Below, in pieces: positions 31,246 through 62,787 of a stretch of 64,000 bases of DNA (position 1 is the first letter of the stretch; the number at the start of each line of letters is the position of its first letter). The stretch lies in contig OZ024744.1 in NCBI GenBank assembly GCA_964016885.1, positions 69,440,001-69,504,000 on the forward strand, in the 5' to 3' direction. Position numbers and translations under genes: made by a program. The notes beneath the pieces are model-generated. The model was not told the DNA's origin, made no database searches, and saw only the letters and a list, made by a program, of their open reading frames with translations. The DNA comes from Eledone cirrhosa. Taxonomy: Eukaryota.

Positions 31246-32077
31246 AACGGCCGGCTCTTCTTTCTTGAACTACGGCGTCAACTGTGCCGACTCAACACAT
31301 CTGTCTCGCCTTTAGCTGTCACTGTTATACTGTGTGTGACCTGTGACCTATTTCAGACGTCATAAAAGCTAGAAGACTCGGTCTCATATAGGTCACTTAT
31401 AGCAAAGAGAAAAGACAGAAGTATTACAATAGTTACTGCTAATGGGAAACCACACATTGTAGAAGAAAAAAGATATCTCGGTCTCATGCTACGCTACTGG
31501 AGGAGGTTTGTAAAGACAGGAATTGTAGAAAGAATAAACTCGCGGAAGCCTATCCTGGATAGGGATAAATGTACTAGTATAATTATCAATGTTGTCTCAG
31601 GAAATTCGACATGGTAATGATGATGATGATGATGATGGTGGTGGTAGTGCTGATGGTTATGATGATGATATGGAGGAGGGTGAGAAGGATGATGATGATG
31701 AGGAGGAGGAGGTGGAGGTGGAGGGGGAGGGGGAATAATAATAATAATAATAATAATAATAATAATAATAATAACAATAATAATAATAATAATAATAATG
31801 ATTTCATTTATTAGCCACCAGGGCCGACATGTAGGGGACAATACAAAGACAGGGACAGTGAGGGTTTACAATAAGGTGGAGTAAAAGTGCACAATGGCAA
31901 GACTAATTTAACAATGAAAATATAAAAATATAAAATAAACTATGCATAAATATAACAAAATAAATTCCCCGAGAGGGGGTGTACGACCCTGGGGTGCTTC
32001 AGGTACCCCACCAATCCTGAACCACCCTGCGCTTCTAGGGCACCTAGAGAGAGCACCCTCTCCTCAAGTTAGCTAGC

Positions 32078-35000
32078 CTATAGGCGCATGGTCAGAGTAG
32101 GCCCATTCACACGAGCCATTCTCGCCACATTCACCCACCTTTTAGCAAATGTAGTGGGGGGCAGCACTTCTCTCTCCACCCTCACCTTCCTTTGCAGGTG
32201 AAACTTGAAGAAGTTGATGAGGGATTGGCCGAAGAGAAAAGTGTCTGTCTTTAGTCCTTTCAACCTGGTCCACCATATAATCTCTTTCGCAACTGCCACC
32301 AGACAGAGGAAAATTTCCTGCTCTTCCTGACCTAAGGAAGGCGGTGGATCGATCTTCACTATGGACTCGGCCGATAGCCGGATTCGTTCCACACGCGACA
32401 GTAGCTGTTCGACATAACTCCACAAGTCAGTAATGCACGGACATTGGACAAGTGCGTGCATTGGGCAGGTCCGTCTGACAGCACTTCCGTGCCTGTAGAG
32501 TTTATCCCGAACCGGCAGTGCCCCCCGGTAGCACTGCCAAGCGAGGGATTTCTGGAAATTGTCCATCATCCCCGGCTCAAAAGTCCTCCGGTACAGACTG
32601 GTCAGTTCGACTTCGTCGAGGCCCAAAACTTCTCCGAGTGCGTCATCGCACTTGCCCACCACTAATCCTCTATAGAACTCGAGAGTGGAAGTTCCACTGA
32701 TCGCATTGTCCGCTTGGTAGAGGGCAGTGAGTGCCTGGCAACATTCCAGGTGCCAGTCAGCCAGTCTCGGTCTCTTCTTGACCTAGGACTGCAGCTCAGT
32801 CAAAGAAATGAGCTGCGGAAAGGCCCGTCTGATAAACGGCGACGACACCTGTTCACCGTTGAGGCAGAATATCTGGAGATGTCGCAGCCTCAACGCATGT
32901 CTGCGCATCATTAGCCACGGCATGCCCAGCCCTCCGCGTAGAGGGTGCTGGCAGCAGATGGACCGCCTCACCAACGGAACTTGTCCCCTCCACAAGAATT
33001 TGAAGAGGAGCCGTTCCAGCTTGACGAGGCGCGGACGGGGGCAAGGCACGACGGTCAGGCGGTAGTAGATGACCTCCGCGCGACCTTTCAGTGATAGCTT
33101 CCTCCCAGCCCATTTTTGGGTGAGACTGGCTACTCTGCTCGTTACCTCGTCCCAATTCTTTTCCACCTGGAGGTCTGGTCCGAACCAAACCCCGAGCAAC
33201 TTTACCCGTCCGTCCAGCGCCCCACGACGCTGTTGGACGGCATGGGCTTGCCTCTCCAGGTTCCGACTTTTCCGGGTTAAGTTTGGCTCCTGTCAACCTT
33301 TCATATTCCTTCAATAAGGTGCCGACCACCTCGATTTCTGAGGTGTTCGACACCATCACGGTGATGTCGTCCGCATAAGCCGACACCGCCTTTCCACGTC
33401 CCGGTTCGAGCGGGATGCCCTGCAACAGCTCCAGCTTCCGCAGTAAAGGCTCGAGAGTCAATACGTACATAAGGGAAGAGAGAGGGCACCCTTAACGGAC
33501 CGATCGAGAGAGCCGAAATGGTTCCGAGAGGTGGCCATTAACGTTGACCACCGAGAATGTGTCGCTGTGCATTGCAACGATCCAGCTTCTAAAGACAGAG
33601 CCGAAGCCAGCTGCTTTGAGGACAAACTCCAGATACCGATGGTCGACCATATCGAATGCTTTCGATTGATCTAAATTGATCAGTGCCCCACCGAAGCCAG
33701 GTTTACACCCAACCCTCTCTATGATGTATCGCATGAGGTGGAGATTGTCGTATATGGACCTGGCTGGGATTGCGCAAGTTTGCGCCTCCCCAACCAAATC
33801 CTCGACGACAAGCGCCAATCTCTTTGCTAACACCTTGGCCAAAATCTTAAACTCTGTGTTGAGCAGAGTTATGGGCCTGAAGTTGTCTAATGTATCCCTC
33901 TTGTTCTCGTCTTTCCTTATCAGCGTCACCACTCCCCTGCTCACAGAACTGGGAATACTCCCATTCTGCTGCCAGTTGCAGTAGAGTGCTTCGAGGAGTT
34001 CGGAGAACAAGCCTGGCATATTTACGTAAAGCTCGTAGGGCAGGTCATCCAAACCGGGTGACTTGCGCCTCATGCAGCCGACAAGGGCGTCCTGAATTTC
34101 GGCTGAAGTAATCGGCCTTTCGCAGCGCTCAGCGTCGACCGTCGAGATGCGCGGCAAGCCGTCAAGGTAGGGACTGAAATCCGCTACTCTCTCTGACTCA
34201 CCACTCTCTCTGAACAACCGAGCAAAGTGTTGGCGAAAGGCCTCACACATCCGCTTGGAATCGCTTATCTCGTGTCCGTCTCGGTCGGCCAAAGACCGAA
34301 TCGTGGTTTTATTACCACGCTGCGCCTCCGCCACGCGGGCCCATCGAACAGCTTTAGTTCCCTCGTTTCTCAGCGCACGCGCCTTAGCTCTGACAATGCA
34401 ACATTCGTGTTTGGCATTGAAGAAATGGTCTAATGCCATTCTCACCACTAGCACGTCAGTTGCAATGCCACTACAAATAGCCTCGTCTAACTTATCAACC
34501 AGCTCCCCCTACTTTCTATTTTTCTCTAACGCTAGTTCTTTGCTGAACTCTATCGAAGTTACGCTAATTTCTCTTTTGAGAGCCACCCACCATCTGTTGT
34601 TGATGATCCCCCCCCCCCGTCAACTTTTGCTTAACTAAATTGTTGACTCGGTCCCTGTAAGCCTTACGTGCCGGAAATGACATGTTTAGCTTCCAGTAAC
34701 CCGGTCCCAACCTACGCGTTTTATTTAGGTCGACCGTACAGATCACAAATTTGTGATCTGAATAGGCGACCGTTTTAAAAAGTGGACAACCAACACTATT
34801 TCTATTTATTTTCCTAATGAAGATCCTGTCTATATACAATCTAGATGACCCCATTCGGTTGGTCCATGTCCATACTGGCACATTGGGGAAATCTAGTCGA
34901 TACCTGTCAGACAGTTGGAACTGGCTGAGTAGGTGCTTGAGGCTTTTGCACCCCCCGCTCCTATCGGCTACTCCCACACAATCCCAGCGTGCGTCTAAGA

Positions 35001-60400: not shown

Positions 60401-62787
60401 ACGTTCAGCTTCCAGTAGCCGGGCGCTTGCCTATGGAGTCTATCTAAGTCAACTTCACAGATCACAAATTTGTGGTCGGTGTAGTCGACTACTTTAAATT
60501 GTGGACAACGTACACTAGCCTTTATTTGTTTGCCTACAGAATACCCTATCTAAATACGATGTGGATGACCCGATACGGTTTGTCTATGTCCACATTGGTA
60601 CATTCGGATAATCCAGTCTATACCTGTTAGACAATTCAAAACGTCTGAGCAGGCTGTTGAGGCTTGTATACCCTCCTGCTCTGTCTACTAGCCCCACATA
60701 ATCCCGGCGTGCATCTAAGATGCCGTTCCAGTTGCCCACTAACACTAAACAACGGGAGTTCCAAGAAAGGCCTCAAGACTTCTGAAGAAATCTGGCCGTC
60801 CTGCTCCTGTAGACGGCTACTAGCCTGAAAGCATTGCTTTCGCTGCCGGTCACGTCCAGCACCACCGACGTACCTTCTGGATCCAGGAAGATGGCCCTTA
60901 TGGCGAGATACAAGCCCCTCCGAAAAAACACGGCAACCCCCCCCCTCCGATCTTGGGCGGCTGGGAGATGGGTATACATCATAGCCGCCGAAGATCGATG
61001 CGATGGCTCGTGCTTCGGAGATTCTGGTCTCGCTGATGGCTACCACATCTAGGTTTAGTGACCTGAGCTCATTGAGCAGGTGACCCTGCTTCCAAGATGA
61101 CCCCAGGCCACGTTCATTTATATTGCCTATTCTAAGTACCGCCATGTTGGATGAGAAACGGGGTAAGTGAGAAAGGAACACTTACCTTGATCGTGTGGTG
61201 AAGGGACAGTAGAACCGCCCCTTTGGCTGGTCATGGGTTTTTCCAAGAGGATGTCGGTATATATCCTCGTGGTAACTGACCCTCTGAAGTCTCCAACTGC
61301 GTTGGAGAATTTTTCTTTTAACAGCTTCTATTTTGATTTCGATTATGTTTACGTTTTTCGGGAGAGTTCTTGGTGTTGGTGGGGTGTAGTAGTTTTTTTC
61401 TGTGATGACTGTGAGCTGCTTTATATGTTGTAAGAGTTCTTTATTTGCCATGTTTATGGCTGTGTACTTTTTGGGGGGAGGGGTGACTTTGGTGCTGTTA
61501 GATGTGTGTGTTTTACTGTGTTTGCGACGTTGGTGTTTTTGGTGATGCTGGTGGTGGTGTGGTTGTTGTTGGTGGTGATGCTTGTGGTGGTTATGGTGAT
61601 GGTGATGGTGTTGCTGCAAGTCTCCTTGCAGCCTTTCCCCTCTTTGTTTGCCTTCGCTTTTGGAGGGTGAAGCTAAGGGGTTTTTCCTTTTTTGTTTTTG
61701 TGGCAGACCCTTTGCAATTCCCTCCCGCCTCATACTCTATTTCGGATTCCGTGGAGTCAGGGAAGGGTATGAGCACTTTAGTTGTCCGTGGCCTTGGTAT
61801 GAGTGCCACGGACGTTGCCCTCCTACTCACCATGGAAGGGTCTTCTGCCTCTGTTGCCTGCCCTGCTCTTGGTAGCAGCGGATCGGGCGTCGGTAGCAGG
61901 GTAGGTGGGTCGGTGGGGGGTCTCTTTTGGCCCTCTTCTGCGGGCAGAAAGCCCTGAGGTGACCCTTCTGCCCACAGAGATAGCACTTTGGGCGCCTTCC
62001 TTCCACGCTTATAGGGAGTTGGAGTCCTTCTTCGAGGTCTTTGATGTCTGGGATGGCCTCAATGCACTCCTGGTCAGTCTGTATTAGCATTTGCATGCTT
62101 ATTCCTGACCAGTTCTCTTTTCCCATTCTCTGTATTTGCAGTATGGTTGTCTTCTCGATTCCAGCCAGTATAGACGCGGCTAGCCAAGGTATGGGCACGT
62201 CGGGCGGCACCTGGGTCACTTTGACCATGATAATTTTCTGCCTGCAGTAGGGGGGCACCAAGACTATCTCCTCACTCTTTAGGGTTTCCAAAGAGTGAGA
62301 CTTCGCCTCATGGAGGGTGGCGAAAAGTACGTCTACTGTGGCGTACCTTTTACCTCGGGTAATGTGGGTTTTGAACGCCCAGACGCACCCCATGGCCTTT
62401 TGGATTTGAACCTCCGTGGCTCTTTCCACCCGATGTGAGATTTTGTTTACGGTGCGTTAAGTCACCGTGCGCAACTGCTGATCTTTGAAGAAATCGGGTG
62501 CGGGTTTCAGGGAAACTCTATTGTCGTTTCTTAACACCATGGCTCCTGCGACTGCCATCTCCTCCTCCGTGACTGACACTGTCTCTATATTTCGGGCCAC
62601 ACCTGCGAAAGAAGTGGCTCCTTTTTCAGCGGCACCATTATTGCTGCCGCTACTGCTTGTTGTTGGAGCTGTTGCTGTTGCTACTGTTACAAACGGTGTT
62701 GTTGCTGTTGTTGCTGTTATCACTGTTGTAGTCAGTTGTGTTTTTGGTGCCACCGTTGTTGTTGTTTTCGGTGCTTAGTAGAGATTA
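57499..62787 (-). mobile_element. Tx1-like LINE copy C; ORF2 61145-57799 and ORF1 ~62780-61182, degraded, 5' end lost at the palindromic element
   Basis: MAVLRIGNINERGL, GYWKLN, VRQGCPLS, FADD; ORF1 knuckle CYLCGQKGHLRAFC; ~63-bp deletion near 59527 relative to copy B. Confidence 0.9.

Follow-up and report, generated by a model that had tools for sequence, protein, structure and literature searches.

Opposite-facing Tx1-like and R4/Dong-like retrotransposons in (AAT)n microsatellites of Eledone cirrhosa and the probable serial growth of their arrays

The window analysed here, a stretch of 64,000 nucleotides from Eledone cirrhosa (contig OZ024744.1, C28 in our numbering of contigs, 69,440,001-69,504,000, within a 3.0-Gb genome), contains six retrotransposons without long terminal repeats (non-LTR) in series at 31800-62772. 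They belong to two groups, Tx1-like elements with an apurinic/apyrimidinic endonuclease (APE), designated T, and R4/Dong-like elements with a restriction-like endonuclease (RLE), designated R, and their order is T1(-), R1(+), R2(+), R3(+), T2(-), T3(-). Nothing but AAT tracts of 18-102 bp is found at the left end and at the five junctions within the array, with no other DNA between the elements, which is not a matter of chance against a background of 0.9% for AAT or ATT each. An earlier note on this DNA had described six elements separated by nothing but (AAT)n, the three APE elements on the minus strand and the three RLE elements on the plus strand. Domain searches, tblastn and the strands of all six copies agree with that assignment; the tract-only junctions hold inside the array and at its left end, whereas the right end is a truncation of T3 abutting a foldback element at 62773-63795. 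The locus is, moreover, one of many such arrays. Tx1-like and R4/Dong-like elements occupy (AAT)n in opposite directions at many sites of this genome, and we consider it probable that the array in the window grew by independent serial insertion.

This reading is supported by the flanks of other copies. Loci fetched by DNA searches (designated L plus a number) are the best-scoring copies and are therefore biased towards young ones, and a position-sampled set of 20 blocks of 40 kb at fixed genome positions (800 kb) provided the chance level, 0.9% of its 39-mers passing the same AAT or ATT test each. Among the best-matching full-length copies, with self excluded and two locus pairs being duplicates, the 5′ flank on the coding strand was ATT in 24 of 29 T1, all 29 T2 and 24 of 29 T3 copies, and AAT in 28 of 29 R1 copies, the remaining one having AAG. 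Since a tract might belong to a full-length transcript, copies chosen by their 3′ end were examined as well; in 58 of 116 non-self loci the fetched stretch included the 5′ end, which in the others was beyond its edge. These 5′-truncated copies had an ATT flank in 17 of 25 cases for T (AAT in none) and an AAT flank in 26 of 33 for R (24 of 31 with a triplicate collapsed; ATT in none). In addition, an exact genome-wide count of a 20-mer from the T2 head, which is free of the ranking bias of best-match lists, revealed ATTATT directly before 1651 of 1728 heads (95.5%; background 0.11% per position). All three tallies thus bear out the expectation that most genomic copies carry the repeat at their 5′ junction. 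In PMC4494074, the criterion for target preference is more than 20% of flanks, a value far exceeded by the T2 heads and by the truncated T copies (68%).

The orientation of these elements is also non-random, as had been supposed. The fetched DNA yielded 689 distinct tracts, a sample that is enriched for these elements, includes their tails and excludes the window junctions. Relative to the AAT strand, 255 of 257 T ends were antisense, 306 of 312 R ends were sense, and 156 of 162 ends of a short interspersed nuclear element (SINE) were antisense. All 62 T-R junctions besides those of the window are opposite-facing (38 head-to-head, 24 tail-to-tail, none in the same orientation). Apparent same-orientation R exceptions were due to a SINE piece inside R2 and were gone once the SINE was masked. 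One of the other arrays comprises 11 elements within about 25 kb (C1:2.79 Mb); there are also mixed arrays on C2 and a Tx1 run on C3, and another T-R pair lies 10 kb to the right of the window. The AAT tracts with these elements are dispersed over many contigs and do not constitute a telomeric-repeat target. T makes up 3.2% of the position-sampled 800 kb, R 1.1% (about 4.3% together) and the SINE 1.7%; direct T-R junctions occur in three of the 20 blocks, and four of six young truncated R copies have a 5′ tract, a fifth being a masking artefact. An unassigned element end with an ATT tail also recurs beside such tracts (L099, L164, L240).

With regard to the identity of the T elements, Exo_endo_phos (the APE-type endonuclease/exonuclease/phosphatase domain) lies upstream of the reverse transcriptase (RT) domain RVT_1 in T1 and T2, and T3 matches both domains by tblastn. 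The architecture is that of two-ORF (open reading frame) Tx1 elements, in which ORF2 has an N-terminal APE followed by the RT. A CCHC zinc knuckle in T3 ORF1 (zf-CCHC, E 4e-4) falls just under the cut-off, and a similar motif spans the frameshift of T1. The RT of T2 matches Xenopus Tx1 ORF2 (YTX2) with 240 bits (E 8e-66), compared to 132 bits for human L1 ORF2p. In an RT tree of 46 rows, which has neither an L1 outgroup nor a Dong or R4 reference sequence, T1-T3 are placed among Tx1-like homologs, where they form a long branch of their own (100/100 support) that is sister to the YTX2-containing group at only 87/71. They represent three families with 66-78% RT identity, and AATAAA is located 6-7 nt ahead of the tract in all three (7 nt ahead of the ATT tract in T1). 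A fourth Tx1 head type was observed on a T2-like body, likewise after ATT tracts (L288-L290, L038, L042, L060), which suggests swapping of 5′ ends and ORF1 among Tx1 families. Several rows counted as truncated T copies in array blocks of the position-sampled set are in fact this fourth head, which is outside the element library.

The RTs of the R elements are only 25-30% identical to those of T, and the two groups are split with 100/100 support in the same tree. R1 has a single open frame (38740-42165; 1141 aa between stops) with an RT followed by a CCHC motif and an RPD..D motif of the PD-(D/E)xK nuclease, without APE, which is the RLE-type architecture; its best matches in the PDB are R2 proteins (the known element, not the R2 of the window), including the C-terminal RLE stretch. 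Neither Dong nor R4 appears among the names of the 120 listed matches out of 1588 RLE homologs (E<=1e-30), and a literature search on the defining features of the R4 clade found no paper. Placement of the RT with Dong, R4 and Rex6, as opposed to R2, NeSL, HERO or CRE, is tentative. The R elements do show one R4/Dong trait, as they lie in TAA repeats with respect to their coding strand. The three copies belong to two families, RT identity being 87% between R1 and R3 and 49% between R1 and R2. Despite the latter value, the 5′ head of R2 is 87% identical to that of R1 over about 615 nt, and a modular 5′ untranslated region (UTR) is common to the R families (37694-38307, 42354-43490 and 47439-48160 in the window). 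The head motif was present in 20 of 29 other R2 copies (four of them in one tandem run), most R2-family copies seen have a 3′-end piece of the SINE between head and core, and two R2 copies begin at the core directly after the tract. The R2 family may have acquired this UTR, an R1-type head with a SINE end attached, from neighbouring array members; alternatively, truncation may favour an internal AAT within R2. An Rfam scan of 31000-64000 gave four matches, all far below the gathering score, so that the head common to both R families shows no known ribozyme. Other divergent RLE families, with about 33% amino acid identity to R1, also start directly after AAT tracts (L062, L122, L032, L114, L222, L354 and a block on C4). 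In some R copies the 5′ flank changes gradually from AAT to (AAG)n, which is similar to the first bases of R itself (L087, L097, L135, L139, L185), slippage at the 5′ junction being a possible cause.

Table 1. Elements, tracts and adjoining features of the array (positions in the window)
Feature	Position	Strand	Evidence
(AAT)n tract, T1 3′ tail/target, array left end	31734..31799	.	sequence
T1, full-length Tx1-like, ORF1 + ORF2 (APE-RT) broken by stops/frameshifts	31800..37630	-	
(AAT)21, between heads of T1 and R1 (head-to-head)	37631..37693	.	
R1, full-length RLE (R4/Dong-like) element	37694..42251	+	RT, CCHC, RPD..D
(AAT)34	42252..42353	.	
R2, second RLE family; ORF broken: stop at 45990, frameshift near 46700	42354..47420	+	
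3′-end piece of ATT-tailed SINE, inside R2 5′ UTR	43424..43490	+	
(AAT)6	47421..47438	.	
R3, older degraded R1-lineage copy, 90% nt identity to R1	47439..52482	+	
(AAT)18, between tails of R3 and T2 (tail-to-tail)	52483..52536	.	
T2, Tx1-like, both ends present; ORF1 internal deletion vs other copies; ORF2 frameshift near 54900	52537..57462	-	
AAT tract, single GAT interruption	57463..57498	.	
T3, oldest Tx1-like element, ~480 nt of 5′ end gone; zinc knuckle in ORF1	57499..62772	-	
~1-kb foldback element, similar to a miniature inverted-repeat transposable element, nested inverted arms 91-93% alike, TA run at centre; ends array	62773..63795	.	

Target-site duplications are invisible in perfect repeats and were therefore sought at imperfect sites. 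Duplications of 12-17 nt were found for the T copies L375, L373 and L390, and others for the R copy L110 and for an R copy on C2. In the latter, the duplicated bases are the final ones of a T end, which shows that R entered a T tail. A search of 12 full-length T1 copies for duplications located 10 3′ ends but no informative duplication. The duplications at imperfect sites lend some direct support to the idea, put forward in the earlier note, that each insertion regenerates the target; on the Tx1 side, the targeting looks like a preference for an ATTAT-type site.

The third participant is an abundant SINE of about 190 nt with an ATT tail and tRNA-like A-box and B-box motifs (recognised by eye). 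Three copies are located in the window (30845-31030, 31043-31237 and 11230-11403), and others in L052 and L044. Duplications of at least 10 nt flank 38 of 63 SINE copies, being 10-20 nt long with one of 26 and mostly starting with ATTAT, whereas mismatched pairs used as a control gave a mean of 2 and a maximum of 6. When the last 45 nt of the SINE were compared with the ends of T1, T2 and T3, only 6, 6 and 1 of 500 shuffles, respectively, aligned as well, versus 61-424 of 500 for the R ends, i.e., no alignment. Judging from this 3′-end similarity, the SINE is likely moved by the Tx1 machinery, although an RTE element may be its partner instead.

In target-primed reverse transcription, the strand that is nicked first lies opposite the sense strand of the element. 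Given the observed orientations, the RLE would therefore first nick the T-rich strand (ATT), and the Tx1 APE the A-rich one (AAT) at a site of the type ATTAT/ATAAT. Several triplets would be duplicated by a second nick approximately 10-20 nt away, and each insertion would likely leave repeat on both sides, usable by the next element. Because AATAAA lies so close to the tract in all three families, the Tx1 RNA would end within a read-through (AUU)n, which could anneal to the nicked primer and thereby give rise to a tail. A SINE driven by Tx1 would in turn seed short new targets. We would give an even chance to a wider reading, in which a Tx1 lineage with APE converged on the ancient TAA target of Dong from the opposite strand, both nuclease classes and a Tx1-driven SINE feed each other's landing sites genome-wide, arrays serve as a workshop for new elements (such as the young R2 with a UTR from its neighbours), and AAT tracts, as a niche that propagates itself, account for several percent of the genome.

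Several observations weigh against shared targeting and serial insertion. Among the truncated copies, a tract was lacking in 8 of the 25 T and 7 of the 33 R, and in the position-sampled 800 kb only one of five young 5′-truncated T copies had an ATT 5′ flank, old T fragments had no 5′ tract at all, and 11 of 21 tracts of at least 24 bp touched none of these elements. The full-length T1 copies L011 and L024 have an ATT tail but neither a 5′ tract nor a duplication, and most SINE sites are not microsatellites. Informative duplications are few (flagged rows: 5 of 72 T and 9 of 100 R, 14 of 172 in all), and more than half of the flagged rows are explained by pure repeat or tandem copies. Both insertion orders are only weakly shown, since T was younger in 4 and R in 10 of 61 T-R pairs. 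In addition, the best-scoring loci are a skewed sample, and no empty allele was seen in short contigs of two runs and restriction site-associated DNA (RAD) reads, which broke at repeats. Because of the tail-only copies, the sparse tracts of truncated T copies and the element-free tracts, Tx1 targeting looks like a strong preference for an ATTAT-type site that is best supplied by the repeat, not a strict microsatellite specificity, and the Tx1 ATT tail is at least partly element-made.

The same observations leave room for a less likely but serious alternative, in which only the RLE targets the repeat: Tx1 would cut loosely at short ATTAT or AT-rich sites, carry a 3′ (AUU)n and land in tracts by RNA-target pairing and 5′ microhomology, while Dong fills Tx1 and SINE tails. 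Consistent with this, the SINE duplications start with ATTAT yet lie mostly outside microsatellites, the T copy L375 sits at a barely repeated site, L011 and L024 have tails without a 5′ tract, tracts are rare in the unbiased sample of truncated T copies, and guidance of priming by RNA repeats has been proposed for RTE elements (PMC6007223). Loose cutting is, however, difficult to reconcile with ATTATT before almost all T2 heads and a tract upstream of most truncated T copies, and it would alter only the source of specificity, leaving the orientation rule and the arrays as they are.

It is improbable that the 5′ tracts are parts of the elements' own read-through transcripts from upstream members and that arrays arise by co-transposition or tandem duplication. 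The R2 head does look as if assembled from array neighbours, a triplicate occurs on C1706, and four near-identical full-length R2 copies lie head-to-tail at 4955-bp spacing on C28 (L279-L282, 114.443-114.463 Mb), a run for which serial insertion, tandem duplication and assembly expansion are all possible. However, truncated copies with many different starts are still flanked by tracts, and head-to-head and tail-to-tail pairs are incompatible with one sense transcript. The six copies in the window are at most 90% alike, so that tandem duplication is rejected as the source of this array, and they are of unequal age: the nearest fetched copy is about 99% identical for R1 and R2 and about 91% for T3, in line with the unequal distances that serial insertion predicts.

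A mis-join of the assembly across AAT tracts is very unlikely to have produced the array because the tracts are short, the window is free of gaps (it contains no N) in an assembly with contigs of up to 443 Mb, and target bases are duplicated on both sides of single copies elsewhere, which no mis-join would create, even though a same-strand mis-join would also preserve the orientation rule and no contig was shown to bridge a junction (among the short contigs and RAD reads, the longest locus-specific piece was 423 nt, from the left flank).

Each part of the proposed system of serial insertion by two clades has precedent. The elements SART and TRAS both have an APE and belong to the R1 clade. In Bombyx mori, SART1 and TRAS1 insert in opposite directions into TTAGG, the endonuclease setting the site and RNA-target annealing helping priming (PMC7265360); two families thus face opposite ways in one repeat, but only in a telomeric one, whereas here unrelated nucleases meet in dispersed microsatellites. 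Dong, DongAg, DongBg and Rex6 insert in TAA repeats (PMC1635306, PMC3812793), Dong being listed as RLE in the former paper but under APE types in the latter; by description, R resembles Dong and Rex6 in its single ORF with RT, CCHC and PD..D nuclease and in its TAA/AAT insertion, but here the tracts are also used by an APE clade and two families with 49% RT identity have one 5′ head. In the Tx1 clade, Kibi, Koshi and crocodilian families target (TC)n, (TTC)n and (TTCC)n/(TTTC)n (PMC4494074) and are likewise APE elements inserted in microsatellites, the differences being the ATT target and the separate long branch of the three families described here. What the earlier note states on these three systems agrees with the literature. 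Crocodilian SINEU and Tx1-Mar also have a common target preference and are often in tandem (PMC4494074), whereas the present SINE has tRNA-like motifs, a Tx1-family 3′ end and an ATTAT site. A literature search, which did not extend to Repbase or to Fig. 3 and the supplement of PMC4494074, found no ATT-targeting Tx1 and no joint Dong/Tx1 target; the joint use of a single dispersed microsatellite by two classes of nuclease, together with a SINE and mixed arrays across the genome, seems not to have been described.

The repeat composition of the window is similar to descriptions of octopod genomes. In Octopus vulgaris, the most active or recently active long interspersed nuclear elements include Dong-R4 and L1-Tx1, and hotspots have been reported without a cause (PMC13282606); the words "target" and "nested" do not occur in the available text of that paper. 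The arrays described here offer a mechanism for such retrotransposon hotspots. They also provide a natural APE/RLE pair with the same trinucleotide target in opposite polarity, for which young copies and one open RLE frame are available, so that the evolution of specificity and the roles of nuclease versus RNA pairing become directly testable. Caution is needed with AAT markers in such genomes, which are often element ends.

Beyond the array, the foldback element that truncates T3 has related pieces in L271 and in one sampled block on C3, and the missing T3 head of about 480 nt was not found within the next 20 kb. No tRNA was detected in the window by ARAGORN. Degenerate microsatellite arrays of great length, composed of TATG, TA and ATG/GGT, are located at 13505-15244, 22432-25450 and 29401-30752 and yield spurious long ORFs, and open frames of 150-400 aa are present in the left half of the window at 7919-10588 and 15814-17797.

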